Assembly (NCBI GenBank): GCA_035603615.1
Contig: DATNKC010000446.1
Span: 1-49,249 of the forward strand
Reading direction: 5' to 3'
Length of the DNA: 49,249 bases
Source: Steroidobacteraceae bacterium
GTDB lineage: Bacteria > Pseudomonadota > Gammaproteobacteria > Steroidobacterales > Steroidobacteraceae
Under the pieces are notes generated by a model. It did not search any database. It was not told the DNA's origin and worked only from the letters and a program-made list of their open reading frames with translations. The translations under genes and the position numbers were made by a program. This document shows, one piece after another, positions 24,152-45,740 of this stretch (position 1 is the first letter of the stretch; each line of letters begins with the position of its first letter).

Positions 24152-26401
24152 CTATACCGAGATCTGGCTGCGCGGCGAAAGCTGCCGGGAAGCCGCGGCC
24201 TTCTCGGCACGAGCCACGGCGCTCGCGTCGGTCAGGTGCATGAGCGGTCCGACGAACGGTGCATAGTTGCGCCACCGCTCCACTGAAGTTTTGCTGATTT
24301 TCTGCCGAACCTGCCACTTGCTGAAGGTGCTGACTCGGCGGTTCGTCTGGTGAAAATCGATGCACGCCGGATCCCAAGGCAGCCCGACGAAATCCAGCAT
24401 TTTTCGGCTCCACGTTTCCTGATCGGCCACCAGCGCCTCGTAGGGAACTTCGAGAATCGCGCTTGGCGGCAGGATGGAACGCCAATGTTGCATGAGCAGC
24501 TGGTACTCATGGTGATAGTGAGCCAGATCCTCCAGATCGTTCGCGTAGGAGTGAGCGACATGGAAATTCTGAAAGTAGATCGACAGGCAGGTATCGATGG
24601 GATTGCGGCGCATGTGGATGAATCGTGCGTTCGGCAGCGCCGCATGAATCATGCCCAAATGCGCGAAATTCGCGGGCATTTTGTCGACCACTCGAGACGC
24701 GTCCAGTGATAGCCCGGTAAGCAGCTGTAAATATTCATCCGCGAGCTTCGCCAGGACGCTTCCGTCAAAGCCGCTTTCCAATGCCGCGGATCCGACCTGG
24801 AGCGATGCGGTCTTCCAAAAGGATAATTCGCCGGCCCCGAACACCGCGGGATGCGAAGCCAGTATCTGCTCGGCCAGCGAAGTGCCGGAGCGCGGCATGC
24901 CGACGATAAAAATCGGGCGCGACGAGCTATTTGACGTTACTTTGGCTCGGTCGAGCCACTCGCGGTCATAGAGCCGGGTGGTGAACTCGAACGTCCGCGC
25001 CAGATGTTGCCGGTCGTGCGGGGGGCTGTAGGCCTTCGCAATTTCGTTGGCGCGCCGGTAACTTACGAAAGCCTGCTCGTAATCTTGGACATCGTCGAAG
25101 AATTTGCCCATGGCGTAGCGCAAATGTGCTTCGTCCCGGGGCCGCAATGGCCGCTGCGCTATGCGCTGAGCTTCTTTGATCCAGGCGGAATCGTCGCTGG
25201 TCATTTTCCGCAACGCAGCCAGGCCGGCCCACGCCTGGGCCGATTCGGGGTGGCCCGCATAGGCCTTTTTGTATAGATTCTCGGCCTCTGCAAATTGCCC
25301 TCTATCGGCATACAACTCCGCGAGCGAAGTGATGGTCGGCGCGGCGCCGGGATCAATGCTGAGCGCCCGGCGCAGACTCGCCTCGGCCTCGTCCGCGCGG
25401 CCTTGCAACCTTTGCACGACTCCCAAGTTGGTCAGGATTTCTGAGGAATCGGCGCGGATTGCCAATGCGCGCCGGTAGCTCGCCTCGGCCTCGTCCAGTT
25501 TTGCGAGTTCACGAAATGCGCTGCCCAAGTTACTGTGGGCCTTTGCGAAGTCGGGCTCGAGTTCAAGCGCGCGCGAGTAGCTCGCCACGGCCTCCTCAAT
25601 CCGCCCCAGATCGAGCAGCGCGTTTCCTAGATTGTTGTGCAACTTGGCGTAATCCGGTCTGATTGCCACGGCGCACCGGTAGCTCGCCGCGGCTTCCTCG
25701 AGTCGTCCCGAATCTCGCAAGGCATTGCCCAGGTTATTGTGCGCTTCCACGGAATCCGGCCGAAAATGCAAAACGCGGCGGTAGCTCCACGCCGCCTCGT
25801 CGAGCCGTCCGAGAGCCAACAAGGTATCGCCCAAATTCATGTGCGCCATCGCAAAATCAGGCTTGATGGAAATCGCCTGGCGATAGCTCGCCACGGCATG
25901 ATCCGGACGCTTCGAGTCGCGCAGCGCGCTGCCTAGGTTGTTGTGCGCTTCTGCATAGTCAGGCTTCAGCGCAATGGCGCGCCGATGGCACGACACGGCC
26001 TCGTCCAGGCGGCCACGCGCCCGCAAGACGTTTCCCAGATTCGTTTGCGACTCCGGATCACGCGACAGTAGTTTTGCCGCAGTTTCCAGCGCCGCCAAAG
26101 CGTCTTTACCCTGATTGAAGAGCGCCGCTCCCAACAGCTTCCACAGGATTCCGAAGTCTTTGTGCCGCGCGAGCAACCCGAGCGCGTCTCTCTCCAGTTC
26201 GGGATTTCGACCTGCTGCGAGCAGCGCGAACAACGGAGTTAAATCCGGCGCCGCGGCGGCGGGGATCCGCGTAATATCTTGTGTGTCGCTGCCCCGCGCC
26301 TCGACTGCGTGCTGCGCACAGCACTTCTTGTATTTCTTACCGCTGCCGCAGAGGCAAGGGTCGTTTCTTCCAGGCGTCAAGGTGGTTTCCCGCGATGGCA
26401 T
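24152..26401 (-). CDS. SEC-C motif / TPR-repeat / sulfotransferase fusion protein
   Basis: 749 aa. N-terminal CLCGSGKKYKKCC (SEC-C metal-binding motif). About 9 TPR units (repeated ...AHNNLGNAL...GRLEEA..SYRRA). C-terminal sulfotransferase with the PAPS 5'-PSB loop IVGMPRSGTSL. No signal peptide. Confidence 0.9.
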   Translation of the reverse strand: MPSRETTLTPGRNDPCLCGSGKKYKKCCAQHAVEARGSDTQDITRIPAAAAPDLTPLFALLAAGRNPELERDALGLLARHKDFGILWKLLGAALFNQGKDALAALETAAKLLSRDPESQTNLGNVLRARGRLDEAVSCHRRAIALKPDYAEAHNNLGSALRDSKRPDHAVASYRQAISIKPDFAMAHMNLGDTLLALGRLDEAAWSYRRVLHFRPDSVEAHNNLGNALRDSGRLEEAAASYRCAVAIRPDYAKLHNNLGNALLDLGRIEEAVASYSRALELEPDFAKAHSNLGSAFRELAKLDEAEASYRRALAIRADSSEILTNLGVVQRLQGRADEAEASLRRALSIDPGAAPTITSLAELYADRGQFAEAENLYKKAYAGHPESAQAWAGLAALRKMTSDDSAWIKEAQRIAQRPLRPRDEAHLRYAMGKFFDDVQDYEQAFVSYRRANEIAKAYSPPHDRQHLARTFEFTTRLYDREWLDRAKVTSNSSSRPIFIVGMPRSGTSLAEQILASHPAVFGAGELSFWKTASLQVGSAALESGFDGSVLAKLADEYLQLLTGLSLDASRVVDKMPANFAHLGMIHAALPNARFIHMRRNPIDTCLSIYFQNFHVAHSYANDLEDLAHYHHEYQLLMQHWRSILPPSAILEVPYEALVADQETWSRKMLDFVGLPWDPACIDFHQTNRRVSTFSKWQVRQKISKTSVERWRNYAPFVGPLMHLTDASAVARAEKAAASRQLSPRSQISV

Positions 26402-26483: not shown

Positions 26484-28367
26484 TCACGACGTTTCCTGAA
26501 CCGAAAAACTGCACGGCGGCTGGCCTTGTTGGGCGCGCTGCCACATGCTGAGGTAGGCGCTCTCCAGGTGCCTGCGCGTTCGATCGGTGTCGAACAAAGG
26601 GCTGGTCGACCTCGAGTTCCGCAGACGGGTGCGCAATGCAGCGAGGCGATCAGGATCCTCCGCCAGCGCAAGAGCGACACCTTCGTATTCCTGCCAGCTC
26701 GTCGTGATCAGCTCCGTCAAGCCGGCAGCCCTGAGCAAGCTGCCGGCCATGCGCGAGACAAACGAACGACCGGCGTAAGTCACGACCGGCACGCCCGCCC
26801 AAAGTGCATCGCTGGTGGTCGTCGCCCCATTGACCGGCGCCGTATCGAGACACAGGTCGGCGAGCGCAATTCTCGCCACATGATCTGTATTGGAAACGTT
26901 GGACGCGAAAACCAAGCGGGCGGGATCGATGTGGCGGGCCGCCGCTTCCAAGAGCAGGTTCTTTTCGGTCTCCTTTGCGCCCGGTATCACCCACAGCACG
27001 CTGTCGTGCACCGCGGCCAATAAGCGGCACCAAATGTCAAAGAGGGGCGGATTGAATTTGTAGGCATTGTTAAAACAGCACCATACGAAGGCATTTCTCG
27101 GCAGGCCGCAATCGGCCCGAGACGGCACCGCACTCGTGTTCCGCCGACGGTCATTGGGCTGATAGGTTCCTGGCAGATAGACGATCTGTTCGGAATAATG
27201 GACTCTTTCCGGCTTGGGTATCAGGAACTCATCGGCAATCAAGTAGTCCGCATCGTGACCGCCCAGAGTGCCCGGATAGCCCAGGTAGTTAACCTGGATC
27301 GGCGCCGGCCGCCGCGCGAAAATCTCGTGCAGAACACCTCCGGTATAACCCATCAGGTCGACCGCGATATCGACCTCGAGTTCGCGCATCAGCTGCGCGA
27401 TGGCGGCGTCCCGCAGCATGCTCGCGTCGACGAAGCGATCGAATGCCGATTTCACACGCCGCCCCACCTCAGAGTTCTCCGCAGGCCGCAGCGATATCGC
27501 AATTGTCTCGAATTGCTGTCTGTCGTGTTGCTCCCAAAGGTCCATCATCAGATAGGAGGTCGGATGAGCGCGAAAATCTTCGGAAACGTAAGCAATCCGA
27601 ATGCGATCGTGCCGGTAGGGTTCGCCTTGCCACTGCGGCGCCATGTTGGGGCGGCAGCGGGCCGCAAATTGGCGCGCACAGCGCAGTTGCAACTCGCATG
27701 AATCGCTGACAGAAAAAAACACGAATGGAAATGCGGCCGGCTTATCGTCGCGCACGGCCGCTTCAATTTTCTCTTTTTGCGCTTGGTAGTCGCCCCAAAG
27801 ACAGGCATGCAGCTCCGCCCAGAGACGCGCGCCCAGGACGTATTCATAGGTTGGATCGAGGGCGAAGACCCGGCGAAAGCATGCAGCGGCTTCGGCCGGC
27901 CGAGCGAGCTGCGCCAACGCGCGCCCACACAAAAACAAAGTCGTCGGATCGGTCGGCTGCAAATGGACAGCCGCTTCGAGGGCGGCCAGCGCCGCTTGAT
28001 TGAGGGCGCGGTCCAGAAGTATCTTGCCGCGCCCCACCAAGGCGCCAACTACTTGCGGCGAAAATGACAGCGCACGGTCATAGCAATCCAGCGCCTCGTC
28101 GAAGCGGCCCAACTGCGCCAGCGCATCGCCCAAGCTGGCGTGCGCGATCGCCTGTTGGGGCCGCAAGGCGAGCGAACGCCTGATGAGTTCGGCGCCCTCG
28201 GCTGGACGCCGCGTCTGAGTGAGCACGACACCCAGCAAATGCAGGGCGTGGGATTGATTGGGATCGAGGCGCAACACCTCGAGATAGGCCATTTCGGCCT
28301 CCGCGAGGCGTCCGAACCGATGACACTCCACCGCCTGCTTGAGCGGCCGTTCGAGCGCGGACAGCAC
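26484..28367 (-). CDS. TPR-repeat / GT41 (O-GlcNAc-transferase/SPINDLY-like) glycosyltransferase
   Basis: 627 aa with a GTG start, 8 nt after the upstream stop. N-terminal TPRs. The C-terminal part IRIAYVSEDFRAHPTSYLM...VDLMGYTGG...IQVNYLGYPGTLGGHDADYLIADEFLIP...VWCCFNNAYKFNP is typical of the GT41 catalytic region. No signal peptide. Confidence 0.85.
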   Translation of the reverse strand: MLSALERPLKQAVECHRFGRLAEAEMAYLEVLRLDPNQSHALHLLGVVLTQTRRPAEGAELIRRSLALRPQQAIAHASLGDALAQLGRFDEALDCYDRALSFSPQVVGALVGRGKILLDRALNQAALAALEAAVHLQPTDPTTLFLCGRALAQLARPAEAAACFRRVFALDPTYEYVLGARLWAELHACLWGDYQAQKEKIEAAVRDDKPAAFPFVFFSVSDSCELQLRCARQFAARCRPNMAPQWQGEPYRHDRIRIAYVSEDFRAHPTSYLMMDLWEQHDRQQFETIAISLRPAENSEVGRRVKSAFDRFVDASMLRDAAIAQLMRELEVDIAVDLMGYTGGVLHEIFARRPAPIQVNYLGYPGTLGGHDADYLIADEFLIPKPERVHYSEQIVYLPGTYQPNDRRRNTSAVPSRADCGLPRNAFVWCCFNNAYKFNPPLFDIWCRLLAAVHDSVLWVIPGAKETEKNLLLEAAARHIDPARLVFASNVSNTDHVARIALADLCLDTAPVNGATTTSDALWAGVPVVTYAGRSFVSRMAGSLLRAAGLTELITTSWQEYEGVALALAEDPDRLAALRTRLRNSRSTSPLFDTDRTRRHLESAYLSMWQRAQQGQPPCSFSVQETS

Positions 28368-28375
28368 GGCCGGCC

Positions 28376-29026
28376 TTACGGGCCGTTCTTTTTTGCGGCC
28401 CGAAGCGCCAGGGCGCGCGCGCGATATTCGTCCACGAAATTCTCGATCCGCGTGCGCGCGATTTTCGTGAACGGGTCCGCCGTGCCGACCTTGGTGAATA
28501 CGCCAATGTGTTCGTAACGATCGAGAATTTGGCTATTCACTTCGAAAAGCCCGAGGTTATCCTCGGCGCATTTGTCGAAAGCAACGGAACGTTCCTTGAG
28601 GTCATTCTGCAACTTGGCGCGGTCGGCCTCCACTTCCTTGAGATTCATTGCCATCTCGCGAAAGCGCGCCACCAGCTCCGTGGTTCGCTGCTTGAGTTGT
28701 TCGAGACTCTTTTCAGCCGCTTCCTTGCCCGCGGTTAACTGTGCGAATTGGACGCTCGAGCCCCCAGCGCGCGACTTCAACGCGTCGCGCTCCTTTTTTA
28801 CCGCCGCGAGCTCGCCCCTGGCGGTGTCGAGATCGTTCTTCATCTGTGTCGCCTGCGCTTGCAGCGCGGTTTTTTCTGCCGCGAGCTGTTGATATTGCTG
28901 CATGAACTTCTGGGTCTCGTTGCCGCTGCGCTGGGTTTGCGCCTGCGCGCAGGGCATCGCGAAGATCCCGAGGATCAGCGGCATTGCCAGGCGCAAAAAC
29001 ATGTAGCTGGGCCGGCTGTGGTTCAT
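28376..29026 (-). CDS. Periplasmic coiled-coil protein
   Basis: The ATG at 29026 has a GGAGGG RBS; the track start at 29272 would lie inside the porin gene. Signal peptide MNHSRPSYMFLRLAMPLILGIFAMPCAQA. About 130 aa of heptad-like Q/A/E/K-rich sequence, followed by a globular tail. Confidence 0.7.
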   Translation of the reverse strand: MNHSRPSYMFLRLAMPLILGIFAMPCAQAQTQRSGNETQKFMQQYQQLAAEKTALQAQATQMKNDLDTARGELAAVKKERDALKSRAGGSSVQFAQLTAGKEAAEKSLEQLKQRTTELVARFREMAMNLKEVEADRAKLQNDLKERSVAFDKCAEDNLGLFEVNSQILDRYEHIGVFTKVGTADPFTKIARTRIENFVDEYRARALALRAAKKNGP

Positions 29027-29037
29027 TGTCGTCCCTC

Positions 29038-30657
29038 CTAGAAGCGGGTGCTTACGTCGAATTGCAAGGTATCGACGCCGAATCGCGGACCGTCGACTTC
29101 GTTGGCACTCAAATAGCGCAGGCGCAGCCACACGTGATTGGCGACGCCGTAATCGCCCACGAAGTAATAACCCCTGGCATTGGTCCCGCCGAAGTAATGA
29201 AAGTCCGAATCGGTGTATCCGTCGATCACGGCGTCGTTCTGCAAGTAGCGATAACCGATGAGCGCACGCCAATTGCCTGGGATCAATACCGTGGGATCGC
29301 CGAAACTAATCTCCCCCTGATAACCGGTCGTTCCCGGTGTGACGTAGAAGCCCGTATTGGCCTCAACCTGCGCCTCGTGGAAACCGAAATTTCTGACCGC
29401 GTCCGCCGTGACCTTCAGCAGGTACTTGCCGACGCCGAGGCTATAGGTGGCATTCACGTTCGCGAGACGGAATTTGGACGCCAGTGCGAACAGATTCGTG
29501 GTCGGATCGGCCAAATTCGCGATATCGAACACCGTGTTGCCATAGCGCATAAACGTGGGTGCCGTATAGTCGAAAAGACCAGGGCTGCCAGGCGGGTTCA
29601 AGCGCCCCGTGACATTGAAGTAATCATAGAACGCGCCGGTGAAGCGCAGGCGCTGCGCCTCCCCCCAGCGGAAATTGGTTCCCAGTTCCGCGGCGACCAG
29701 CCACTTGTCCTGCGGGGAAAATTCCACATCCTGCAAGGGATGCGCGCCAACCGTGAAAAACATCTGCGATTGCTCGGGACTGCCATCCCCCAAGCCGAGG
29801 CGCGCTGTGGTGGCGAGACCGGTGAAGGTCAAGTCTTTGTGGAATATCAAATCGGTGGGCGTCTCGTATGGATTCAAAAATCGGCCGCCGACCACGGTCA
29901 ACCACGGAAATTTCTGTTCGTTGCGTTCGTCCAATCGAATATAAAGCTCATCGAGCCCGAATTGATACGGCGCGGTTCCGTCGACCGTCTGCGTTTCGGA
30001 CACCAGATCGGTGGTGTTGCCCGTGACCAGGCGCATCCCCGCCGTGATGGAATCGCTGAGATCCGATTCCACGCCGAGGCGCGCGCGGCCGCGAAAGCGA
30101 ACGCGTGTCTCGTCGTCGTCCAAAAAGGCGTTCTGACCGGCCTTGGCGATCGAGCCGGCCTGATTGATCTGGTAGTAGTTGAAAAACTGGTCGTGCGCGT
30201 TCGTGCCGTCGTAGAACAAGCCTTCCTCGCGCAGCGTTAATTCACCCGAAATGCGCGTTCGCGTCAGCCATTCGGGGAGCGCGCCCGGTACACCCCATTT
30301 TTCCGTTTTCGCTTCGTTGAGGACATCCGCGACCACGCCGGGTTTGACCTCGTCGGCCACTTGCTTCGCGATCTCATCTTTGACGATTTGCGGTACGTAG
30401 GGCACGCGCACGGCGCCCTCGTCCGCTTTGGCCACTGCGGCGGCATCCGCGGCGGCTTTGTCCTGCGCGGCCTTGACCATTTGAGCGGCCTTTTCGCGCG
30501 TGATGACTCCTTGATCGACCAGGACCTGCAGCAAATTGACGACGGTGTTGCGCAGTTCCTCGAGCGATTGGCGCTCGTCCGCGCGGCACGCGATTGCGGG
30601 CGCCAACGTGATCGCCAATGAGGCGAGCGCAGCCCGCAATACTTTCCCGTTGAACAT
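29038..30657 (-). CDS. Porin-like outer-membrane beta-barrel with N-terminal helical periplasmic extension ('putative porin' family type)
   Basis: 539 aa with a GGAGGGAG RBS and a signal peptide. About 100 aa of Ala/Lys/Asp-rich helical region (VDQGVITREKAAQMVKAAQDKAAADAAAVAKADEG). After that come alternating beta-strands ending in ...FDVSTRF with a terminal aromatic residue. Confidence 0.8.
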   Translation of the reverse strand: MFNGKVLRAALASLAITLAPAIACRADERQSLEELRNTVVNLLQVLVDQGVITREKAAQMVKAAQDKAAADAAAVAKADEGAVRVPYVPQIVKDEIAKQVADEVKPGVVADVLNEAKTEKWGVPGALPEWLTRTRISGELTLREEGLFYDGTNAHDQFFNYYQINQAGSIAKAGQNAFLDDDETRVRFRGRARLGVESDLSDSITAGMRLVTGNTTDLVSETQTVDGTAPYQFGLDELYIRLDERNEQKFPWLTVVGGRFLNPYETPTDLIFHKDLTFTGLATTARLGLGDGSPEQSQMFFTVGAHPLQDVEFSPQDKWLVAAELGTNFRWGEAQRLRFTGAFYDYFNVTGRLNPPGSPGLFDYTAPTFMRYGNTVFDIANLADPTTNLFALASKFRLANVNATYSLGVGKYLLKVTADAVRNFGFHEAQVEANTGFYVTPGTTGYQGEISFGDPTVLIPGNWRALIGYRYLQNDAVIDGYTDSDFHYFGGTNARGYYFVGDYGVANHVWLRLRYLSANEVDGPRFGVDTLQFDVSTRF

Positions 30658-30703
30658 GATAGAAACTCCCTCCGGGCTTTTTTTGAATCGGAAACGAAAA
30701 TTT

Positions 30704-31351
30704 TCAGAAGACGACGCGCAGATTCACTTGCTCCGGCATGCCCGGCGGCGGCGCATCCCCCACGGTCGTAATCGACGCCAATACCTTGTCGACGCACTCA
30801 TCGACCCGTGCATTGCCGGTGCTCGTCGTTAATTGGATCTGCTTCACACGGCCATCGGCGGCCACCACGACACGAGTAGACACCGAGCCCTTGGCGGACT
30901 TGGTGCAGGGCGCGGCGGTCAATTTTTCCTTGATGGCATCGCGCATTCGATTGGTGTACCAGGCAAATGGCGCCGTACCGCTGCCGCCGATCAGATCGCT
31001 GCCGCCGCGGCGAGCGGCGAGTCCGAACGCGTCTCCACCGGCGCTGCCGTCTGCGTCGATCCCGAGCGGCTGATCCGGCGCCTGATCGGGCTGCTGCTCC
31101 GGAGTCGGATCCGGCACGTCCTTGGGCAAGGGCTCCTGGGTCTTCTCGGGCGGCGGAGGCGGCGGCTGATCGGGCGGTGGTGGTGGTGGCGGGCGAATAA
31201 TTTGTACCGATTGCACCAGCCGCTGAGGTTTCGAAGTCTTGAGCGACATCATCGTGTTGACGAACCAGACGAAACCCGCGATCAGCGCAATTGCGATCAC
31301 ACCTCCGCCGATGCGCGAAACCAGGCGACGCTGGGCTCCCTTGTCGGCCAC
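30704..31351 (-). CDS. tonB: TonB-family energy transducer
   Basis: 215 aa with a GTG start. N-terminal TM anchor and a poly-proline spacer (RPPPPPPPDQPPPPPPEKTQEPLPKDVPDP). C-terminal TonB-like domain (GSVSTRVVVAADGRVKQIQLTTSTGNARVDECV). Confidence 0.85.
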   Translation of the reverse strand: MADKGAQRRLVSRIGGGVIAIALIAGFVWFVNTMMSLKTSKPQRLVQSVQIIRPPPPPPPDQPPPPPPEKTQEPLPKDVPDPTPEQQPDQAPDQPLGIDADGSAGGDAFGLAARRGGSDLIGGSGTAPFAWYTNRMRDAIKEKLTAAPCTKSAKGSVSTRVVVAADGRVKQIQLTTSTGNARVDECVDKVLASITTVGDAPPPGMPEQVNLRVVF

Positions 31352-31360
31352 GCGAGCCCG

Positions 31361-31774
31361 CTACTTACTGAGCCGCTGGGTCACTAACCCAAGTTGATTG
31401 ATCTCGAGCCGTCCAACGACGTCGAGTACGTCGATCACGCGCTGATACGCGATCGTGGAATCGGCCTTGACGACCACCGGCAGGTTCGGATTGGCCGCCT
31501 TGGCGTTGCGCAGTAGATTCTCGAGTTCCGGGAGACTGACCGGGTAGGTGTCCAAGTACATCGTCCCGTCCGCGGTCAGGGTGATCGCTTTGGTCTGTGG
31601 TTTTGCAAGCGATGGCGTGTCGCTGGCTTTCGGTAAGTTGACCTTGATGCCCTGCACGGACGCGGTGGTCATGATGATGAAGATCACCATCAGCACATAG
31701 GCGAGATCGAGCATGGGGGTGATGTTGATATCGTCGTAGACATCCTTTTCGCCGCTATCAATGGATCCGGACAC
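31361..31774 (-). CDS. exbD: ExbD/TolR-family biopolymer transport protein
   Basis: 137 aa starting at GTG 31774, with GAGG 8 nt upstream and 10 nt after the ExbB stop. DDINITPMLDLAYVLMVIFIIM TM region plus a periplasmic domain. The track start at 31966 lies inside the upstream gene. Confidence 0.9.
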   Translation of the reverse strand: MSGSIDSGEKDVYDDINITPMLDLAYVLMVIFIIMTTASVQGIKVNLPKASDTPSLAKPQTKAITLTADGTMYLDTYPVSLPELENLLRNAKAANPNLPVVVKADSTIAYQRVIDVLDVVGRLEINQLGLVTQRLSK

Positions 31775-31784
31775 GGTCGCGGCC

Positions 31785-33605
31785 TCAGCTGTACTGCTCT
31801 GCAACGCGCGTGACGAACTCGTCCACGAAAACGCGGTTGTCCGCCGTGATCGCCTTGATACGCGTGTTGAGCCAGTTGTAGCCAAACAAAGAAGGAATCG
31901 CGACCGCAAGACCCGCGACAGTCGCGGCCAAAGCCGCCGCGGTGCCCGGCGCAATGGCATTGACATTCACATCGCCTGAAAGCGCAATGGCCGCGAAGGT
32001 GATCATCACGCCGATGACAGTGCCGAGCAGGCCTAGAAACGGGCCGCCCGAAATCGCAATGGTCAATAGCACCATCTGACTCGAGAGAGTTTGCTGCAAA
32101 CGGGTCATCGATGAATCCATCGCGGCGCGAATGGCGTCCATCGATTGCGGCGACAGCGTCTTGACTCGTTGTGCGCTCACGGTTTGGCCGCCAATGCGTT
32201 TGTTCAGCTCGAACACACCATGGTGATAGAGCCGGTAGAGCGTCGATGCGCCATATTTGTTCTGATCCTTCGCAAGCTCGGCCATCGAAGGGGCGGCGGC
32301 GATGAGATCCTGCTCTTCCGACGAGGTGGACGGCTTGTCGAGCACGGTAGGATCACCGCTCAGGCGGCGAAACTCCCGCAGAAAGCGCGCGTTGGCGCGT
32401 TCGACACGCGCCAGGAAAATGGCTTTGAACACCATGATGAGCAGGGAGACCGCGAGCATCGCCATGCAAATGCCGATCACCACCCAGCCGTCGATGGTCA
32501 GGTTTTTCGCGATGGTGCCGAAGTAAGACGCTTGACTGCCGCCTTCTTTCTGCCCATCCGGTCCGTAGACGACCAGATTGGCATCCATGCCCTGAGCGCG
32601 CGCCGATGCCTTGATCCAATCCGCCGATCGCACGACCTTGGATACCTCGACTTCGTCGAGGTCGCCCGTCAAGAACGCCTTTCCGTCCGCGGACCCGATC
32701 CTGAGGGTGCCTCCCAACTCGGCCAAGGTGATCGGGGCACTTGCCGTGGCGAGCCCATCGACATAGAGCGTGAGTTTGCCGCTGCCGACGGTCAGTGCGA
32801 CATGGTGCCACTGATTCAACGATAGATCGGTCGGCTGCGTCGCTGTGGCAGGTGCGCCGTCAAGAGCCGCACGCGCGACCATTTTCGATCCGTCGATGGA
32901 CAGTTCGACGAACTTGCCCTGATCGGCCAATGCAAGGATGGTGGCCTGCTGCGCTTTCTCGATCCTCAGCCACGCTGACATTGTCAAACCTTGGTTGGGA
33001 AGCAGCCGCAGGGATGCGCTGGCCGGCACCGCAATGGTTTCCTTGCCGGAAAACTTGGCGCCGCCACCGATCAGCGAGGCCGGCGTCAAGCCGGCGTTGG
33101 ATGCGGATGGGTTGTTCTTATAGGCCGTTAAGTCCTGTGGAGTGCCGCTGCTCTCCGACATCGGTAGGACCAAAACTTGCGCGGCGTCGTACGTGCCGGG
33201 CGCATCCGCCGCGTTGGGTGCGTCGGCGTTGCCATAGTAGGCGTAAATCTTATCGCTCTTCGAACCGCCGGTGATTTGCGGCACACGCACCCACAACAGA
33301 GCCATCTGGTTTTGGACGTCGTACTTCTCGAAGTGAAACTTAAGTGGCGTCTTGTCATCGCCCGCGACGATGCGGAAATCAGAGCCATCCGGCTTGGTGT
33401 CGTTGAAGTAGCTGAAGTTGGCCAATGAAAGACGAATCAATACCGGAACGTCGAGCGGCGTGCCGGCGACATCGGCGCCGGTCGCAGACAAATCCAGGCT
33501 GATCTCTTTGCGATATTTCCAATCGTTGTTCCACCATGTTGCGGCGAGCGCCGCCATGGGAATAAGCGTCGCAGCGACGGCGATCAATGCGGCCAAACGC
33601 TTCAT
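31785..33605 (-). CDS. exbB: DUF2341 / LamG-like / MotA-TolQ-ExbB proton-channel fusion protein
   Basis: 606 aa with a signal peptide. The WWNNDWKYRKEISL hallmark of DUF2341 is present, as is the concanavalin/LamG-type segment (LTMSAWLRIE...WHHVALTVGSGKLTLYVDG...GDLDEVEV). The C-terminal third has three TM helices, including the conserved ExbB GGPFLGLLGTVIGV segment. Confidence 0.9.
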   Translation of the reverse strand: MKRLAALIAVAATLIPMAALAATWWNNDWKYRKEISLDLSATGADVAGTPLDVPVLIRLSLANFSYFNDTKPDGSDFRIVAGDDKTPLKFHFEKYDVQNQMALLWVRVPQITGGSKSDKIYAYYGNADAPNAADAPGTYDAAQVLVLPMSESSGTPQDLTAYKNNPSASNAGLTPASLIGGGAKFSGKETIAVPASASLRLLPNQGLTMSAWLRIEKAQQATILALADQGKFVELSIDGSKMVARAALDGAPATATQPTDLSLNQWHHVALTVGSGKLTLYVDGLATASAPITLAELGGTLRIGSADGKAFLTGDLDEVEVSKVVRSADWIKASARAQGMDANLVVYGPDGQKEGGSQASYFGTIAKNLTIDGWVVIGICMAMLAVSLLIMVFKAIFLARVERANARFLREFRRLSGDPTVLDKPSTSSEEQDLIAAAPSMAELAKDQNKYGASTLYRLYHHGVFELNKRIGGQTVSAQRVKTLSPQSMDAIRAAMDSSMTRLQQTLSSQMVLLTIAISGGPFLGLLGTVIGVMITFAAIALSGDVNVNAIAPGTAAALAATVAGLAVAIPSLFGYNWLNTRIKAITADNRVFVDEFVTRVAEQYS

Positions 33606-33708: not shown

Positions 33709-36700
33709 TTAGGGCGCCGCTGATCTCTGGCGCTTCAAGCATTCAATGTCGTCTTGCTTGCAATTTTCTTCGCCCAATCCCGTGACGAACACATCGAGCC
33801 AACTCAATGCGGCCTGCGCCAAGGGAACGGTTTCCTTGGCTGCGTTTGTCTCGGCAACGGATGAAGTGCTGCTGGTGGTAGCGCCGGCTGCGACCGCCGA
33901 GACGCCGGACAAGCTCGCGCTCAGATTGCTCAGGTCCGACGGCACGCCGGTCGCGGTTCCGCCGAAGTTGATGTTGTCCACGCCGATCACGTGCGCCGCG
34001 GCGATATTGATGTTTCCCGCGGCGCCGATGCCTGCATCGCCGGCATCCACCGTGCCGACCGGGGCATCGAGATCCACATCGCCCGCCGGTATGCTGGGAT
34101 TCGTTTGTATGGTTCGAATCCCCGAGCCTGTCGCCAGAGAACCGGCAAAGTTCAGGGTGACCACGCCTTGCTGATTCACGGAAACGGTGGGCGGCGGCAC
34201 TGACAGCGACGACTTGGAACCGTTGCCGGCATCGATGCTGCCTTCATCCGACCAGATGAGAATATTGCCGCCGCCCAGCGTGAAGACGCGGGACTGATTC
34301 ACATTCACATCGCCTTGCGTATAGATATCCACGTTGCCCGCTCCCTGCGCGACGATGCCGAGGCTGGATGCCGGTTTCGCGACGACGGTGGGCGGAGGAT
34401 TCGCGAGTCCGACATCGACCTCTCCTCCCGGGACCAGGATCGAGATGTTGCCGCCGCTGTCGGTATAGATGCGGCTCGTGGTCAAGGTCAGATTTCCCGC
34501 GTAGGGCGAAGCTGTAGTGCTCGAGCGGCTGCCGGGGAACAGTGCATCGATGGCGTTGTAGCCTTGCTGGAAGCCAACGCCGGTTCCCGAATTCGCGGCG
34601 CGGCCGGAAAGCAGCAGCTCGTTGAAGAACACGTTGTCGACCAAAGCGGTCTGCTGACTACTCGAAAGACCCGCGAATTGAGATTCGGCCTGCGCAAAAG
34701 TCAGTCCCGAGGTGCCTTCGAGCGATTCTACGTAGCCGGTGAGCTGCGCCTGATAGGCGGTGGACGGCGCAATGATTTGATTCACGAATCCCGAGAGATC
34801 GGCGCCTTGCGTGCCGTAGCCGACCAGCACGTTCGCATTGGCGCCCTGCGATGTCGGCAAATTTGCATTGACCAGATTTCCCAGGGTCACCAGGCCATTG
34901 CCGAACCCGAAGTTGAGGTTGCGGCCGGTGAGCACATCGATGCTGCCGGGACCGCTCAATTGAATGCCCTGGTTCGATCCGCTTCCCGCGCTCGTGAGGT
35001 CGCGGCCCGCCGAGATCAGCGTGATGTCGCTCGCGGAAGTGTTTTGGCCGGCGTAGTTAAGATTGACGATGTCGCGGCCGGCCACGATGTCCGCGGCCTT
35101 GGGAATGGAAAAGCCCACGCCGACGATGTCGCGACCCGCGGTGATGAGAGCGGGGATCGGGTCTCCCGAGTGTATTACGCCCTGGAACGGCACGATCACG
35201 CTTCCCAGGAGCGACGGGTCGGCCGCGGTTGGGATAGTCGATAGAAATGCGTCCGAGAGAGTAATTTGATTGTTGCTGCCGGTCGTGCCCGCCGCTATAT
35301 CTTGCGCGGCGAACAGCGAGAGCTGGCCATCGCTGGCTGGGGCAAGATTGGGTCCGCCACTGACGATGATATCGCCTTGCAGCGCTTGCACCCCTAGGTT
35401 GGGAGGCGCCACCAACAGGGACGTAACGCCGCCGCGGACCACTTCGGCCGTGCCCAATAATGTTCCCATCGGTCCGTTGGTCGAGGGGTTGAGCTCGATC
35501 GTCACTGCGCCGCTCGTGCTCGAGAGGTTGACTGCGGCCGCGGGTCCGTAAGTCAAAAATCCCCCGAGCAGCGTTGAGTCCAACGCTCCGTTGACCTGAG
35601 CTACCAGTGTTGGATTGTAGATCGCATCGATCTGCACGCCGTTGCGCGCCCAAACGGAAATCTGCGAGTTGTCCAATGCAATCGACGAACCGACCGGCAA
35701 ACCGCCGGTCGCGCCGATTCGCGTCGAAGTTCTTATCGGGATAAGGCCGCCGCCCGCGATGACAGTCCCCACACCGTCCGCAACGAAAAGTTGTGCGCTG
35801 CCGATATCGCCGCCCGCAGTAATCGATAAACCGCCGCCGGCACCATACATGGCTGCGTTGCCATCCAGCGTATTGGCGCCGGAGACCAAGCTGTCGGCGG
35901 TCGCCGCGGAAAGGTTCGTGACATTCGATCCGGCCGTCACGGTCACATCGCCGCCACCGAGCGCACCCACATTCCAGTCGAATGCGCCGTAATCGATCCC
36001 ATATTGCGCGGGAATACCGGCAGAGCCCTGGTGCAGCTGCCAGCCGCTTACGCTGTAATTCCCACCGTCGCTTTTGGAGAATGAAACGCCCACCGGGGAT
36101 CCCACCACGTCACCGCCGGCACTGACCCGGACGTTTCCGCCGTTGCTGCCGAAATTCTGAATCAACGCACCGTTGTCGAACGATACCGGTCCGAGCACGT
36201 TGGCCGGCGCATATCCTGCGGTATACACCGCGGCTCCGCCTCCGCCGGCCGCCGCAAACACCACATCGCCCGCGGCGGCCAGATTGATATCCCCGGTACC
36301 GGTGCGCACCACCGAAGGACCGACGCCGTCGGTACTGCCATCCGCCGCTCGGGTCGAGGACATGAGCGTCAGATTCGCGGAGCTGCCTCTGAGCACCGAC
36401 AGCGCATTGGCGCTGCTCACATCGGCCCCGGCCACGAAACTAAATGATGCCGAAGGCAGACTGCTGAGCGCCAGCAGATTGGTATTGCCCGTCGGGTCAG
36501 TTATGAAGCCGTCAGAGAAAGTGCCATTGATATTGATCGAACCTGCCGCGCGCACCGATACATTGATGACCTGCGGTGCCTGCGACGAACCATAGTAGGC
36601 AGGATCGCTGTAGGTGCTCAGGTCCGTCAAACCTTGCAACGTCAGCGCCTCAATATTCGCATCCTGCAATTCGACTCCGGCCTGCACCGAGAGGGGCGTG

Positions 36701-39700
36701 CTGCCAGTGCTCAGTCGCGCCGCGATTCCTGGACTGGCGTTCGTCAAGAAGTTTGACGCGGAACCGATCGCATTCGCCAAATCCGCGTTGACTGTACCCG
36801 AGGTCGTTTGCAGCGTCGTCACGGCGTCGACGACGACCTGACCGACACGGCTGACATCGGCGCCGATGCCCGTCGATCCGACGTTGACGGCTACGTCGGT
36901 GCCGCCGACGGCCGGAGCGCGCAGGATGAGTTGGCCCATCTGGTTCGTGCCTGCGGTCGTAATCACGCTGCCCGGGGCCAACGTGATCGAACAGGCCGCG
37001 CAAGTCGAATTGAGCTCAATCTCGCCGCCCAGTTCCGTGGTACCAGTACCGTCTGCATGCAATTGCCCGCTCGCGTCGAGCCTTACGGCGGTGCCGGCCG
37101 ATAGGTCGATTAAACCCCGCTGCGCGCCCGACTGTGCGCTCAGTACGCCCGCGATCTCGACGGCGCCGGTATCGGCGGTCAGGGTGATGCTGTTCGCATC
37201 AATGACACCACCGTTTTGCAACTGTAAGTCGCCGCTGCGAGCCCGCACATTGACCGCGTTGCTGAAGCCGCCGCTGGCGAGCATCGATGCCAACGGCGTG
37301 AGTCCGCCGGCCAACTGGCCGGCATCCAGCGTGAAGTTGCCGCCGGCCCCGCCGCTGCCGGCGGCGCCGCTGAGCGTACCCGCGAGCGAGACGACTTGGC
37401 CGCCGACGATGGTCAGACTGCCCGCCGGCGCCTGCTGTTCGCCGGCCACACTGAGCATCGAGCCCGCATCCAGCGTGACATTTCCAGAAGCAGTGAGCGC
37501 GATCATCCCGCCCGGTGAAGGTGCCTGCTGATTGACGGCCTGCAGCAGCGTGCCGGCCACGTTGATCGAGCCGCTGCTGCCGAGTTCCAGGTCGCCGCCT
37601 CCAGCATTCATAAACACGAGGCCCGAGGGCGCGGCGATCGCACCTTGATCGAAGATTGCGTTGGCATTCAGGGTCAGGCTGCCGCCGACCAGCGTCGTTG
37701 CGGTCGTGCCTTTGGCAGGCGCGGTAGGCGCACCGAGGGTGAGCAATCCAGAAGCGTTGATCGTGGTCTGTGAACCGGCCCCCGGCGTGAGCTCAACCGC
37801 GTTGATGGTCAAGTCGCCGGCGACGTTCAGGCCGCTGCTGCTGCCCGCCGCGCTCGACACGGTCCCGGCGATCTGCGCGACGGTGCCGGCGAAGCCGCTG
37901 ATGCCCATCGAGTTGGACGCCAAGTTCAAGTTGTTTGCCACGAACGAAAGAGTGCCGCTGCCGACGGCTGGTGTGCTGACCGTCGTACCGCTGGCAGCCG
38001 GGCTAACGCCGCCCAAGGTCAGATTCGCTGCGCCAAAGACGGAGTCCGCGTCAACGGCGTTGTTGATTTGCGTACCCAGCAGGGTCAGGGAGCTCAAGGT
38101 CGGCGCCCCCGTACTCGCGCCGGCGCCGAGAGTCACCGGCGCGTACAAATCAATGTTGCCCTGACTCGAGATGCGCACCGCGCCCGCTGCCTGCAGCGAT
38201 GTCAGCAAACCGGAATCGATATTGAGCGTATCCGGCGAGGTGCCCGAGCCTACGAAGGCCACGCTGTTCGACGCCAGAGACCAACTGGCTCCCTTGCCGT
38301 TGATCGTGCCATTCAGAATGACATTGCCCGGCGCGTCCAGAGCCAGCGCACCGCCGGAACTTAAGCTCGATCCAGATTCAAGCGTGATGGCCGCGCCGGC
38401 GCCGTTGCCCGAGCGCGCGACGACCGGCAACCCGACATCGGAAACCGCGACGAGAGCCGCGCCGGGATTGCTTAGAGTTATCACCTCGGTTGGCGGCAGC
38501 GTCGCGAGCGTGGTGCCGTTCTTTCCGGAAGTCGATGCGAGCGCGCCGTTGAGGTCGATGGATGCCTGCGCCACGACGAAAATTTGATCGGCGGTCAGAT
38601 TAACGCCGCTATCCACAAGCACGCTGTTGGCGGCGACGCTGATGCTGCTGCCGTCAGTGGCGCCGCCCAGCGTCAGCGCGCTGGCGTTCCAGCTTTGCAG
38701 GACCGATCCGGACACGGCCACGAAATCCGGCGTCGTTGCGGCGCCGCCGTTCGTCACTTCCAGATTCGGGGCGCTGATATTGATCAGCGCACCGCGACCG
38801 CCTGTCGCCGCCGCGGTTTGCACATTGCCCTGCAGGTTCAACGAATTGCCGAGCAGGGCGTTGGATCCTTGCACCACAGAAAGACTCAATGTGCCGGCAT
38901 CGGCGGGCTCGGCGACCGGACCTGTTCCGGCGAGCGCCGCCACGGCGCCAAAGTAAGTTGAGGCACTGCTGATATTGTAGGTCGCCAATTGTTGGCCGTA
39001 GCTGCCGGGATAGACGGCGAATCCCTCATAGACGGTCGAGCCCGTGTGAAGCGCGGTTCCGATTGAGCTTAGGTATCCGGCTACGACGGGCGTGCCATCC
39101 GCAAGCGACCCGATTTGGCCGCCGGTCGCGCTGCTGTAGCTGGGCTCGATTTGAATCAGAAGCGCGCCCGGTGCAAGCGCGTAGCGCGGCGGCAGGAGTG
39201 CGTAATAGCCGGGAGCGACGCCAGCGCCGCCGGAAAGATACACGGTCTGCGTGGGATTGAATCCGCCGCTTTCCTGCGGATCGAAGGGCGCCGCCTGTCC
39301 TCTGGCGGCCGGCAAGATCGCGTAGAGACCTGGCGTGCTTTGCGGGCCTGAGCCTGCCAGGGCATCCGTCAGCCCACCGGTACCGGGAACCCATTCATAG
39401 GCGTATAAATCGCCGCCGCCACGCAAGTCCACGGTGGCATTGGATTGCACCGTCACATTGGGGGCGGTCAAACTGACCTGTTTTCCGGGAGTGGCAGTTA
39501 TCGGCGTTTGGCCCGACGGAGTCTGATAAATCCACTGCGCACCGTTCTCCTGTGTCTGCCCGAACGGCACAGTGAGATCGGCACCGCTCACCGAGACCAA
39601 GCTGCCATTGGACAGCGTGAGCGAATTGTTGGCGCTCAGCGCGATTTCGCCGAACGGGGCGAGCAGTGTTCCGCCAACCTCGATGTTGTCCGCCACGATG

Positions 39701-42700
39701 GTCACGGAGCCACCGGCGGATAGAGGCGGTCCCGGCGATGGCGCCGGCTGACCGTTGATCATCACTTGATCGATGTTCACGCTCGTGTTGCTGCCGGCCG
39801 CGCCGGCTCCCGATGCCTGAATCGTAAAGCTCGTGAAGGTATCGGGATAAACTCGCGCAGCTTGGATGGTGAGATTGCCGGCGGTCAGCAGGGAGCCCGT
39901 CTCAACGCCGGCTTGAGAACCAATGGTGCCCTGCAGTTGCACGTCGCCTTGACTCGTCAGCGTCGTGTTGCCGATCCCCTGCAGCGTCAGGTTCCCCAGC
40001 AGAGTGAGCTGATTCGCCGCCACGACCAGGTTACCCGCGCCGGGGGTGGGAACAGGTTGCGTGATGTCGTTTGACAGCAGCGTGAGTGGGTTGCCGATCT
40101 GCACATAAGGCGCGGCGATACCGGCGGTAACGCCATCCGCCACCGACAGAGTCTGGGTCTCGAGGATGACGGACCGGTTCAAGGCCAGCGGTTGGTTGGT
40201 TTGAAGCGAGATCAGGCCCGGCGCGATCCCGCCGGCGTTGAGAATCAAAGAATCAATTCCGGAGTTTGCGATCTCAGAGACGCCGATGGTCGCGAGGTCC
40301 ACGACAGGCGGCGTGGGGGACGCGGCTGCCGTGCCAACGAGCGCGATTTGCAGCGGCTCGCCATTGGGATCGGGTTGACCCAGGATCGAGTCACCGGCGA
40401 GGCGGGCCAAATCGATCTCCAGCGTACCAGCCGCCGCTGCACCGCCGGTGCCCACACCGGCTTTGCCCTGGATGTTTCCCAGGAGCTCGATCGACTCCTG
40501 TGAACTCACCGTGAGCGATCCGCCCGGCGTAGCGACGACTTCGCGGCTGTAACCGGCGCCGGGGCTGGCCACATCGAGTGTCGCGCTGCTGCCCGAAAAA
40601 TTGATCGACGATCCAGCGTCGAGAACCACGGTGCCGCGCTGTGCATTGATGTCGACCGAGCCGCCGGCCTTCACGGTGCCCAACAACAGCCCCTGGTCAT
40701 TCGGCGTCAATATGGCATTGCCGCCGCTGACATCGATGACGGCGGTCGGCGCCAGGGATATTCCAAGTCCGGCAACGTAACCAGGATCCAAAGTCGTCGC
40801 GGTGTTGTCATTGAAGAGCGTCGGCGACGTCAATACTATTGATACGGTGCCGCCGGGAGCTTTCAATGATCCGCCAATGAAGATATCGCCTTCGCCGGCA
40901 ATGCTGATGGCGGCGCCGGGATCTCCGACGATGGCGGCGCCCGGTTGGATGTCGAGGGCGCCGTAGCCGGTCGAGCCCAGTTGTATGTCGTCAGCTAAGC
41001 GCAGCACGTTCAAAGAAACGTTGGTGGTTGGCCGAAGATCGGCCGGCAGCATGACGGCTTGGGAGAATCCGGCGACGGTGCCGCCGCTGACACGCGTCTG
41101 ATAACCTGGCTCGAGCTGCAGTGACAGAGTCTGCGCGTTGATCGTGGCTCCCGCGGTCCCGGCTGCCGATCCTTGAACCGTGAGCACATCGTCGGTGGCT
41201 GACTGCACGGCGCCGGTGGCCGTCAAGGAGATGTTCGAAAATCCGTAGGTCGAGAAAAGCGGCGCATAAACATTCAACATCTGACCCTGACCGTCAAGGT
41301 CGTCGACACTCTGCGCCTCGGTCCACGCCGTGCCCGTGCCTTGAGAAACATCGATACGCGGCGCCAGAAGCGCGAAGCTGCCGCCCGCCGCCGTATAGAC
41401 ACCGAAAGCCTCGATGGCAAGTCCCTGGCCGAACTGCACGGCGCTTTGCGACGGACTGGCATCAAGCGTGATGGATCCGCCATGGCCGTAGATCAGGCTG
41501 CCATTGCTTTGCAGCCAAGCTCCGCCGTCGGCTTTGAGCGCGACATTGTCGCCCAGCACCAGTTCGCTGCCAGGCAATGTCAATTGCAAATTGATCGAGC
41601 CGCCATTCTGCAGCGTGGGGCCGGATCCGATGCCGCCGGCGAGCACGCTGTCATTGGTCCAGAGGCCGCTGACGTTCAATGTCACGCCGTCGCCGACACC
41701 GATTCCCAGGCGCGGATATCCGGTTCCCAGTGTGGGGGCGGCCAATGGATTTTGATCGGCGATCGTGAGCTCGCTTTGAAAGCTCAGACTGCCGCCCAAA
41801 TCGGTGATGTTCGAGTCGATGTCGATGCGCGAACCTTGAACAAGCAGCGAAGATCCGGCAGGCAGCTGCAATGGCAACTTAGCGGGCAGCTGAAAGCTCG
41901 TATTCGTATAGATTTGCGTATTGGTGAAGCCGTCGCTGGTCAAATAAGTCGCCGGCAACTGCAGCATCTGCGGCGGCAGGGGCACTGTGTCGGCGACCAC
42001 GATGGGCGTGGGGTTTGCCGTCACGGTGATGGGCGGTGCGAAATAATCCGCCTGCCCATCGACATTGACGTTGCCCGTGGACTTCGGCGTCCCGATAATC
42101 AAGGTGCCTCCCAACGTGGCAGCGGCGCCGAAGGGGCCGCGCTGGTAAGGGCCATAGACGGCGCTCGCCTGCAAGCTGCCATTGAGGACGAGATTGGGGG
42201 CGGCGAACTGCACCACGCCTGCCGCCGCGCCTTGTTGGTAGCCGGACTCGTAGTGGCTAAGCCCCGGCGTCGGGACAATCTCTTGGACGCCCCACTTGTC
42301 GAAGGACTGTGTCAATGTCGGGTTGACCACACCGGTGTAAGTCAGCAGCGGATTCGCACTGCCGATATCGTAGAGCTGGCCATTGGCGCCGACGAGTTGC
42401 GTGGTCTGAATGCTGCCACCCAGATAGGTGGTCGCGCCGCCCGATACGTTGATCGTGGCGCCCGGATTGAAGACGATGTCACCTTCAGATAAAAACGTCG
42501 CCGTACCGCCCGCTTCGGTCCGCTGCGCGACGGTGCGGCCAACCGCGGCGATCGCGGAGGAAACATCGGCGATGGGTGTCCCGGCTCCGCCGTCCGCGCG
42601 TACATCCACTGTGACCGTGTCTCCGCGCAACGCGCCGTTTCGCTGAGTGGGATCGCCGCTGAATTCGTTGGAACGCAACTGCACCGTGACAAGGTTGGCA

Positions 42701-43950: not shown

Positions 43951-44027
43951 TTCACATCCAGCGATGCTCGATCTACGCATCTCACTACGATATCCGCGCA
44001 ATGTGACATGGGCATGGCTCGCTCGAG

Positions 44028-45709: not shown

Positions 45710-45740
45710 TGAATCGTCGTTAGTCGTCTTCTTTTGCTGC

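Follow-up and report, generated by a model that had tools for sequence, protein, structure and literature searches.

A Ton/Tol-Type Motor with a Porin-Like Partner Is Linked to a Two-Partner Secretion Subfamily and Is Its Candidate Accessory

The window analysed here, a 49,249-nt stretch of DNA from a Steroidobacteraceae bacterium (assembly GCA_035603615.1, contig DATNKC010000446.1), carries a module of five minus-strand genes encoding an ExbB-type channel protein, an ExbD/TolR-type subunit, a TonB/TolA-like transducer, a porin-like outer-membrane barrel and an exported coiled-coil protein. The module lies next to tpsB and tpsA, the genes of a two-partner secretion (TPS, type Vb) system, and the linkage to TPS holds in both directions and across phyla. 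The reading that we favour, if with considerable reserve, is that the module is a dedicated, co-inherited accessory of a PdtA/PdtB-like type Vb subfamily, whose TpsA is a giant protein ending in DUF3739, and that it would act by pulling. The preliminary description of the window had proposed a TonB-type motor that lacks a receptor and has a porin-like barrel without a plug as its partner, and this part of it was borne out, for a motor of the Ton/Tol type.

The ExbB fusion (606 aa) occupies positions 33605..31785 of the minus strand and is followed on the same strand by the ExbD/TolR-type subunit (31774..31361, 137 aa, GTG start; Pfam ExbD, 1.2e-27), the TonB/TolA-like transducer (31351..30704, 215 aa; Pfam TonB_2, 3.9e-8), the Porin_5 outer-membrane barrel (30657..29038, 539 aa) and the exported coiled-coil protein (29026..28376, 216 aa), taken as the counterpart of PA0697. 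The coordinates and the intergenic gaps of 10, 9, 46 and 11 nt agreed with the earlier account when re-measured on the sequence. The GTG start of ExbD sits 10 nt past the ExbB stop, and the coiled-coil gene starts 11 nt past the barrel stop with a GAGGGA ribosome-binding site ahead of it. Upstream, also on the minus strand, lie tpsB (44028..45638, 536 aa), coding an Omp85-type TPS transporter, and tpsA (33709..44001, 3430 aa), coding a giant exoprotein or adhesin; as described before, tpsA is the direct upstream neighbour, with 103 nt between its end and the ExbB fusion. The scan of the module for promoters and terminators gave matches at chance level.

The fusion ExbB family comprises 1091 clusters at 50% identity (E ≤ 1e-30). 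For the forward survey, one genome per species was taken, which gave 23 full-length fusion-ExbB loci, and their open reading frames (ORFs) were searched with the window proteins. The loci came from Gammaproteobacteria (Pseudomonas, Stenotrophomonas, Luteibacter, Methylococcales), Betaproteobacteria (Azonexus, Gallionellaceae, Janthinobacterium), Alphaproteobacteria (Sphingobium, Sandaracinobacteroides, Rhizomicrobium, Micropepsaceae) and Verrucomicrobiota (Opitutaceae, Akkermansiaceae, Chthoniobacter). All 21 loci with upstream sequence had tpsB or tpsA directly upstream of the fusion ExbB. The exbD gene followed it in 23/23 loci and the tonB-like gene in 21/23, both misses being contig ends, while of the 20 loci extending far enough, 18 had Porin_5 and 18 the coiled-coil gene downstream, with the gene order conserved. 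Two variations of the gene set were also seen. The coiled-coil gene directly follows the tonB-like gene in loci L011 and L017, with no Porin_5 in the next 4–8 kb, and two tandem ExbD paralogues replace the single one in L010 (11750-12563), L014 (11653-12467) and L147 (6020-6844).

The reverse survey was a metagenome scan with the TpsA C-terminal domain, which yielded 80 loci, 39 of them with at least 6 kb of downstream sequence. Each of these 39 DUF3739-type TpsA loci carries the fusion ExbB and/or Porin_5 (ExbB in 35/39, the porin in 38/39, the coiled coil in 32/39); among the loci with at least 9 kb downstream, the proportions were 28/30 for ExbB and 29/30 for the porin. As a control, ordinary ExbB/TolQ loci of the same scan were inspected, and TPS or Porin_5 matches appeared in 4/57. 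Two of these four turned out to be truncated fusion orthologues and the other two were tpsB-tpsA-exbB-exbD-tonB clusters, from Nitrospira and Verrucomicrobia. In this plain variant (L038, 3272-12265; L039, 3648-12506), tpsA codes 1343–1482 aa and an ExbB of 259–270 aa without the ectodomain is accompanied by exbD and TonB_2; Porin_5 was not in view in these loci. The existence of the plain-ExbB clusters indicates that TPS is combined with Ton-like motors also where the ectodomain is missing, beyond the DUF2341 fusion family.

The same surveys bear on a different explanation, in which the module is a proton-motive-force machine for the export, anchoring or sensing of the exopolysaccharide (EPS) made by a PEP-CTERM/XrtA locus. 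The window itself speaks for it, as the module stands upstream of an XrtA/PEP-CTERM EPS locus; EPS export genes also lie downstream of the module in L004, L006 and L007, and the LamG fold found on ExbB is often carbohydrate-binding. Over the surveyed loci, however, Poly_export was downstream in only 3/23 genome loci and 3/39 metagenome loci, the Pseudomonas loci had none, and the downstream genes of close relatives are unrelated, as on the 5-Mb contig of a 78%-identical relative. We regard the EPS explanation as very improbable. Thus, of the earlier proposal that the machine serves a surface polymer or adhesin, the adhesin half is upheld by the TPS linkage in both directions, while the surface-polymer half fails, because synteny with surface-polymer genes, on which the preliminary description had itself staked its case, is not conserved for EPS. 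In other words, the conserved partner of the five-gene set is TPS, and its association with EPS/PEP-CTERM genes is lineage-specific.

The module also has a named relative. The P. fluorescens locus L084 codes, in order, DUF772, TpsB, DUF2341/LamG/ExbB, ExbD, TonB_2, Porin_5, a 209-aa protein, YbjN, a PpiC rotamase and LysR. The P. aeruginosa genes PA0691-PA0701 have been described as phdA (transposase-like), pdtB, exbB2, exbD2, tonB4, PA0696, PA0697, PA0698, PA0699 and PA0701, where PA0696 is called a 'putative outer membrane porin', PA0697 is a helical protein with a signal peptide, PA0698 belongs to the YbjN family, PA0699 is a PpiC-type isomerase and PA0701 is a LysR-type regulator (PMC7035377). 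The Pseudomonas loci L084 and L019-L026 match the exbB2-tonB4-PA0696-PA0697 cluster beside the pdtB/pdtA-type TPS in content and order. Judged by the correspondence of its genes, the window module is the counterpart of P. aeruginosa exbB2-exbD2-tonB4-PA0696-PA0697, which lies next to pdtA-phdA-pdtB; this assignment was made through the P. fluorescens locus and the published gene descriptions. The cluster is therefore not without precedent, as had been thought, and its novelty is lower, because it has already been named in P. aeruginosa, where the literature calls it 'still uncharacterized'. Llamas et al. (2009) had pointed out that homologues of TPS, exbBD and PA0696 are found together in Pseudomonas, Burkholderia, Rhodopseudomonas and Janthinobacterium (PMC2729926). 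In P. aeruginosa, phosphate starvation induces the cluster along with OprO, OprP and phosphatases (PMC7035377, PMC9769906), and PA0696 ranks with the most strongly induced proteins when phosphate is limiting (PMC9769906). A functional study of Porin_5, tonB4, PA0696 or PA0697 did not turn up in the literature searches.

The ExbB fusion consists of a signal peptide (aa 1-21), a periplasmic ectodomain with a DUF2341 and LamG cassette (aa 22-372; 32490..33542, minus strand) and a channel part of the MotA/TolQ/ExbB family with three transmembrane helices (31785..32489, minus strand). The exported region noticed earlier is thus present, with a size of about 350 aa after the signal peptide and not about 400. 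Of the domains named at that time, those matched in Pfam were DUF2341 (5.9e-15, aa 73-140), Laminin_G_3 (5.8e-23, aa 197-332), MotA_ExbB (1.1e-24, aa 485-588), ExbD and the porin. The motif WWNNDWKYRKEI (aa 24-35) lies at the mature N-terminus, and across 34 diverse homologues with 33–46% identity its residues W24, W25, W29 and R32 hardly vary. In the same 34 homologues the two proton-path threonines of the channel, T529 (GLLGTV) and T562 (AATVAGL), are invariant, as is the transmembrane Asp of ExbD ('TPMLDLAYV') in 25/25 orthologues. With these catalytic residues conserved, the motor is predicted to be intact and of the Ton/Tol-type 5:2 class.

In the AlphaFold2 (AF2) model of the fusion, the transmembrane helices appear and the LamG jelly roll alone is confident, with a predicted local distance difference test (pLDDT) score of 78-94. 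The Foldseek search of the LamG part returned generic ConA/LamG folds (neurotoxin Hc-N, agrin LG, an arabinanase domain and a trans-sialidase lectin domain), so that the ectodomain may be called lectin-like, as it had been, at the level of fold, and these matches are too generic for its ligand to be inferred. A 2025 survey of MotAB relatives lists both DUF3450 and DUF2341 as N-terminal appendages of ExbB-like subunits, DUF2341 being an unexplained one (PMC12505986). The cassette of DUF2341 and Laminin_G_3 was also seen elsewhere, in tandem arrays of 4–21 copies in giant proteins of 2000–7800 aa, some of which bear fn3 or beta-propeller domains too. It should be noted that a 100%-identical database protein is labelled as coming from a Xanthobacteraceae metagenome-assembled genome, while the named close relatives are nearly all Steroidobacteraceae; this is possibly a binning or label error.

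The channel and ExbD both score nearer to TolQ/TolR than to ExbB/ExbD in NCBIfam and the PDB. For the channel, the NCBIfam scores were 102 bits for tolQ against 52–64 bits for exbB, and the PDB sequence search gave TolQ (8odt) at 7.5e-15 against ExbB (5sv0) at 3.2e-8. The TonB-like protein has one N-terminal transmembrane helix, a poly-Pro spacer, in which a PPPPPPP run is kept in all aligned orthologues, and a C-terminal domain of about 90 aa. The TonB domain was only partly recovered in Pfam, since TonB_2 passes its cut-off (33.7 bits; cut-off 22) and TonB_C stays below its own (19.7 bits; cut-off 24.6). The profile of its orthologues gave weak and about equal matches to HasB/TonB (1.6e-3 to 0.06) and TolA (0.02), and the NCBIfam matches to AgmX/PglI and GltJ were weak and far under the cut-offs.

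Domains of the ExbB, ExbD and TonB types, together with the fact that several TonB paralogues are common in bacteria, could suggest a spare or ordinary Ton system that energises TonB-dependent receptors encoded elsewhere. This can hardly be upheld. The motor is invariantly linked to TPS, Porin_5 and the coiled-coil protein, its ExbB bears an ectodomain of 350 aa, and the TonB_C match falls under the Pfam cut-off. In the window, none of the 34 larger ORFs (five of the module and 29 further ones) matched Plug or TonB_dep_Rec in Pfam, in agreement with the absence of a TonB-dependent receptor noted earlier, and the conserved cluster gave no such match either. The view that this is not a housekeeping iron or B12 system was likewise supported.

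The barrel consists of a signal peptide, a helical periplasmic N-extension (aa ~27-133) and a 16-strand barrel. Its Porin_5 (PF16930) match of 1.3e-133 covers profile positions 1-535 of 535 and, because it is full-length, the N-extension belongs to the Porin_5 family. The AF2 model, built on 54 sequences, shows 16 long strands with pLDDT 70-95. While the sequence search of the barrel against the PDB found nothing, the fold search with Foldseek gave matches, all of them 16–18-strand porins or substrate channels. The best was OmpM1 (E 1.3e-13, TM-score 0.75 on the target), followed by the OmpF, PhoE and OmpC types, and the chitoporin VhChiP, listed together with its N-terminally truncated form, was also among the matches. 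No TonB-dependent receptor occurred in the Foldseek top 50, which, with the 16-strand porin model, agrees with the earlier assignment of a barrel without a plug. The N-extension said to replace the receptor plug was also recovered, as a region modelled as helical with low confidence. It holds the segment VRVPYVP (aa 83-89; 30391..30411, minus strand), which does not vary among 54 close homologues, is conserved across phyla, from Pseudomonas to Verrucomicrobiota, and is predicted to be non-helical and to lie between helices. We consider this segment a candidate strand for the binding of the TonB-like C-terminal domain.

The fifth gene codes, as described, an exported coiled-coil protein, for which we found a signal peptide and generic coiled-coil matches. 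After the signal peptide, the sequence is variable through the coiled coil and conserved in the C-terminal domain (C..N..LY....Y..//..EPF....RV..EN). The protein is without a Pfam family, as the Pfam, NCBIfam and PDB profile searches gave only generic coiled-coil matches. Its identification as DUF3450/TtpB was considered and rejected, for only 5/19 orthologues match weakly, the best at 0.0023 and all under the gathering score.

On the side of the secretion pair, TpsB matches POTRA_2 (1.2e-19, aa 46-121) and ShlB (1.9e-17, aa 184-474) in Pfam. In the precursor, POTRA1 starts at aa 46, so that the mature N-terminus ahead of it is a Pro-rich stretch of only about 17 residues. This leaves no room for an FhaC-like H1 helix and linker, which appear to be absent from TpsB. 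In FhaC, the H1 plug helix and a linker of about 30 residues are needed for secretion. The N-termini of the TpsB orthologues were seen to be variable and Ala/Pro-rich.

TpsA has a TPS domain at its N-terminus (3.6e-21) and DUF3739 at its C-terminus (2.2e-33), and its C-terminal ~280 aa, including DUF3739, are conserved in every linked TpsA with a visible end. The tail of the window protein (aa 3402-3421; 33739..33798, minus strand) comes after a Ser/Ala/Thr-rich linker and carries LDVFVTGLG (aa 3402-3410), for which the consensus across the TpsA subfamily is [LIF]xV[FEDQ][VIL]xG[LF]G[DE]. A linker of this composition precedes the motif in every TpsA of the subfamily whose end is visible. In the alignment of the linked TpsAs, the V, V, G and G of this motif are invariant. 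The motif was found in 62/84 TpsA ORFs, the misses being mostly truncated ORFs or near variants, and nearly all linked TpsAs have it at their very C-terminal end. In the window TpsA and its clade, it is followed by a C-x6-C pair (C3414, C3421). In HMW1 and HxuA, a disulfide-looped C-terminus is held in the periplasm as an anchor (PMC5422565). By analogy, the TpsA tail is a candidate periplasmic anchor or handle. Meanwhile, the short TpsAs of the plain-ExbB variants were also observed to end in an alternating hydrophobic strand (VVIQVDV, RVTVIL).

Beyond the module, the genes lie as described earlier, with TPR-GT41, TPR-sulfotransferase and the XrtA/PEP-CTERM EPS locus downstream. The five-gene string does not end at 28376, as had been supposed, since a minus-strand gene for a protein with TPR repeats and a glycosyltransferase of family 41 (GT41) begins 8 nt past the coiled-coil gene (26484..28367, 627 aa, no signal peptide; Pfam Glyco_transf_41, 8.4e-85). 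It is followed by the gene of a cytoplasmic SEC-C, TPR and sulfotransferase protein (24152..26401, minus strand, 749 aa; Sulfotransfer_3, 4.9e-46; SEC-C, 2.6e-9), in which the SEC-C zinc motif is N-terminal and the TPR repeats number about 10. These TPR enzymes do adjoin the module, but they are more likely part of the TPS module than of the EPS locus to which they had been tied: GT41 recurs in 12/39 metagenome loci and also in L002 and L004, and relatives of the TPR-sulfotransferase occur in 15/39. The TPR and GT41 gene is thus probably an accessory of the TPS module. It recalls HMW1C, a member of GT41 that glycosylates the HMW1 TpsA adhesin. TpsA contains 50 N-x-S/T sequons versus 36.5 ± 5.1 in shuffles, which is only suggestive of HMW1C-like glycosylation.

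The phosphate response of the P. aeruginosa cluster leads to another explanation, TPS-assisted nutrient capture of the HxuCBA kind. Here the surface-anchored TpsA would bind or release an extracellular substrate, for example a phosphate-containing polymer, Porin_5 would import it and the TonB-like protein would gate this channel by way of its N-extension. H. influenzae hxuCBA does couple an anchored TpsA to a TonB-dependent importer (PMC5422565), the co-induction with OprO, OprP and phosphatases fits, and the barrel has the fold of a diffusion porin, with VhChiP among its matches. Moreover, an atypical PstS-like protein of the PBP_like_2 type (480 aa, under the NCBIfam cut-off) is encoded upstream of tpsB in the window (45741-47183, minus strand), and the Nitrospira tpsBA-exbBD-tonB cluster ends in a distant PBP_like_2 gene (L039, 13866-15140; 27% identity over 180 aa). 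However, 16-strand porins need no energy, a plug is not present, and the cluster has no conserved inner-membrane transporter. The PBP_like_2 gene is absent from the 8–10 kb upstream of tpsB where this region is visible, and in the window a terminator-like GC-rich hairpin with a T-run (~45690-45720) separates it from tpsB. The Pho-box scan of the window gave 3 matches against 2.6 expected, that is, chance level, and Pho control is without support here. In L011, L017, L038 and L039, TPS is kept but the motor has no Porin_5 next to it. Taken together, we consider nutrient capture unlikely. As a separate observation, a PBP_like_2 fragment precedes tpsA in L099.

The closeness of the channel and ExbD to TolQ/TolR raises the question of a tether resembling Tol-Pal. 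According to this explanation, the motor would join with the stalked porin and the coiled-coil protein to bridge both membranes and the peptidoglycan, so that the envelope is locally stabilised or organised at the anchored adhesin, without any action on TpsA. The order of the genes (Q-R-A-like, outer-membrane partner, coiled coil) parallels tolQRA-tolB-pal-cpoB, and OmpM1, the best fold match of the barrel, is a stalked outer-membrane attachment porin. Against this, no peptidoglycan-binding domain of the OmpA, SLH or LysM type was found in the five proteins with Pfam, the spacer is poly-Pro as in TonB and not helical as in TolA, and the strict two-way co-inheritance with one TpsA subfamily exceeds a general envelope need. 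A tether of this kind seems to us improbable.

We return to the module as an accessory of TPS and propose the following mechanism for it. TpsB would export TpsA, whose C-terminal tail would stay in the periplasm, as in HMW1 and HxuA, in the form of a flexible linker, a strand motif and a disulfide loop. The TonB-like C-terminal domain would grip a conserved strand by beta-augmentation, which could be VRVPYVP in the porin N-extension or the strand in the tail of TpsA. The motor would then pull and so pass the proton-motive force on to the adhesin system at its outer-membrane end. Such pulling might control the completion of secretion, the surface retention or release of the adhesin or its mechanical tension. 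The five LamG/DUF2341 ectodomains on the ExbB pentamer could form, together with the porin stalk and the coiled-coil protein, a periplasm-spanning link, in which the LamG/DUF2341 ring might serve as a periplasmic rotor or adaptor. The specific step of the motor pulling on the TpsA tail, taken alone, is put forward tentatively, as one that we would sooner doubt than affirm. The wider proposal, that a widespread type Vb subfamily is not energy-independent and has an obligatory 5:2 motor of its own whose TonB-like arm pulls the TpsA tail, the porin or TpsB, is likewise possible rather than probable.

Several points weigh against this interpretation. For type V secretion, no energy source, be it ATP or a membrane potential, is held necessary, and TPS secretion has been reconstituted in vitro without energy input (PMC5422565); the same 2017 review of TPS does not have this motor among the accessory proteins that it lists. 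Transposon mutants of PA0695 (tonB4) and PA0696 kept the VreI-induced virulence in zebrafish, as did the tpsA and tpsB mutants (PMC2729926). Within our own data, relatives of the window TpsA are over-represented in the metagenome survey, and tpsA was not within 10 kb of the motor in several Pseudomonas loci. The S-x3-H motif was not found in the transmembrane helix of the TonB-like protein (IGGGVIAIALIAGFVWFVNTMM), and the ortholog alignment shows no conserved His. In the AF2 models, the helical N-region of the barrel (aa 28-132) has low confidence, and so does the DUF2341 part of the ExbB fusion, which is all-beta but ill-defined; neither its fold nor the arrangement of the domains is interpretable.

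Energy use at some step, be it secretion, retention, release or force, would account for the two-way co-inheritance from Pseudomonas to Verrucomicrobiota, which is otherwise hard to explain. The joint inheritance of a proton-motive-force motor and a single TPS subfamily calls into question the notion that type V secretion runs without energy and, if the proposed mechanism is true, this would be the first energised and mechanically actuated type V system. Our surveys turn the passing remark of 2009 into a testable rule of two-way TPS linkage across phyla, and add the structural class of the barrel and the candidate contact motifs. The module is also a natural 5:2 motor with a large periplasmic appendage, of the sort flagged as unexplained by recent work on stator evolution. 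Finally, exbB2-exbD2-tonB4-PA0696-PA0697 is strongly induced by phosphate starvation in P. aeruginosa and has been reported to be expressed during infection.

A few other features of the window were recorded. The TPS-motor block is flanked by a VPLPA-CTERM protein (47131-47955, minus strand) and a PEP-CTERM protein (22821-23309, minus strand), which is consistent with an exosortase system in the genome. In the EPS locus, an 874-aa ORF (4176-6800, minus strand) had no Pfam match at E ≤ 0.001, and a 405-aa ORF between the export and chain-length genes (20931-22148) had no Pfam match and no NCBIfam match (E ≤ 1e-4). The far end of this locus carries a RES-domain toxin and an Xre/MbcA-type antitoxin, an MbcT/MbcA-like pair (2509-3511, minus strand).

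The module can be compared with several known systems. It shares with canonical ExbB-ExbD-TonB the three-helix channel, the transmembrane Asp of ExbD and a TonB-like protein with a transmembrane anchor, a Pro-rich spacer and a small C-terminal domain. The canonical Ton partner is a plugged 22-strand receptor, whereas here it has a 16-strand porin fold; in addition, the window ExbB bears the 350-aa DUF2341 and LamG ectodomain and is closer in sequence to TolQ/TolR. Tol-Pal provides the best profile and PDB matches for the channel and ExbD, and its operon, too, ends with a periplasmic coiled-coil protein. Nevertheless, the TolB propeller, the Pal lipoprotein and the helical domain II of TolA are not present in the window, and the link is to TPS, not to cell division.

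The Vibrio TonB2 cluster (TtpB, TtpC, ExbB2, ExbD2, TonB2, TtpD) likewise combines a Ton system with periplasmic or coiled-coil accessories. It differs in that TonB2 serves ordinary receptors, while in the window the coiled-coil protein is not DUF3450 and a TPR protein of the TtpD type is lacking. In the Agl-Glt system of Myxococcus, a TolQR-like motor and TonB-like proteins act on non-plugged barrels to work a surface adhesin; the other Glt components are not present in the window module, where the adhesin is a TPS exoprotein. The Veillonella OmpM1 has only 12–13% identity with the window barrel, which is without the SLH domain, and both join a periplasmic N-terminal extension to a 16-strand porin.

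HxuCBA and HMW1ABC resemble the locus in the C-terminal Cys pair of TpsA, in the Ton-related component by the TPS operon (HxuC) and in the GT41 enzyme. In the window, however, the operon includes a Ton motor of its own, its barrel is of the porin and not of the receptor kind, and the GT41 enzyme, unlike that of HMW1ABC, bears TPR repeats like OGT. From the P. aeruginosa exbB2 cluster, which is under VreI/PhoB, the window differs in that VreAIR or Pho regulation is not evident, in that tpsB-tpsA lie directly upstream without a phdA/DUF772 gene, and in that GT41 and TPR-sulfotransferase genes take the downstream place of YbjN, PpiC and LysR. The window and Pseudomonas fusion ExbB proteins have ~38–40% identity, and the two clusters share the gene order, the protein families and the adjacency to the TPS pair.

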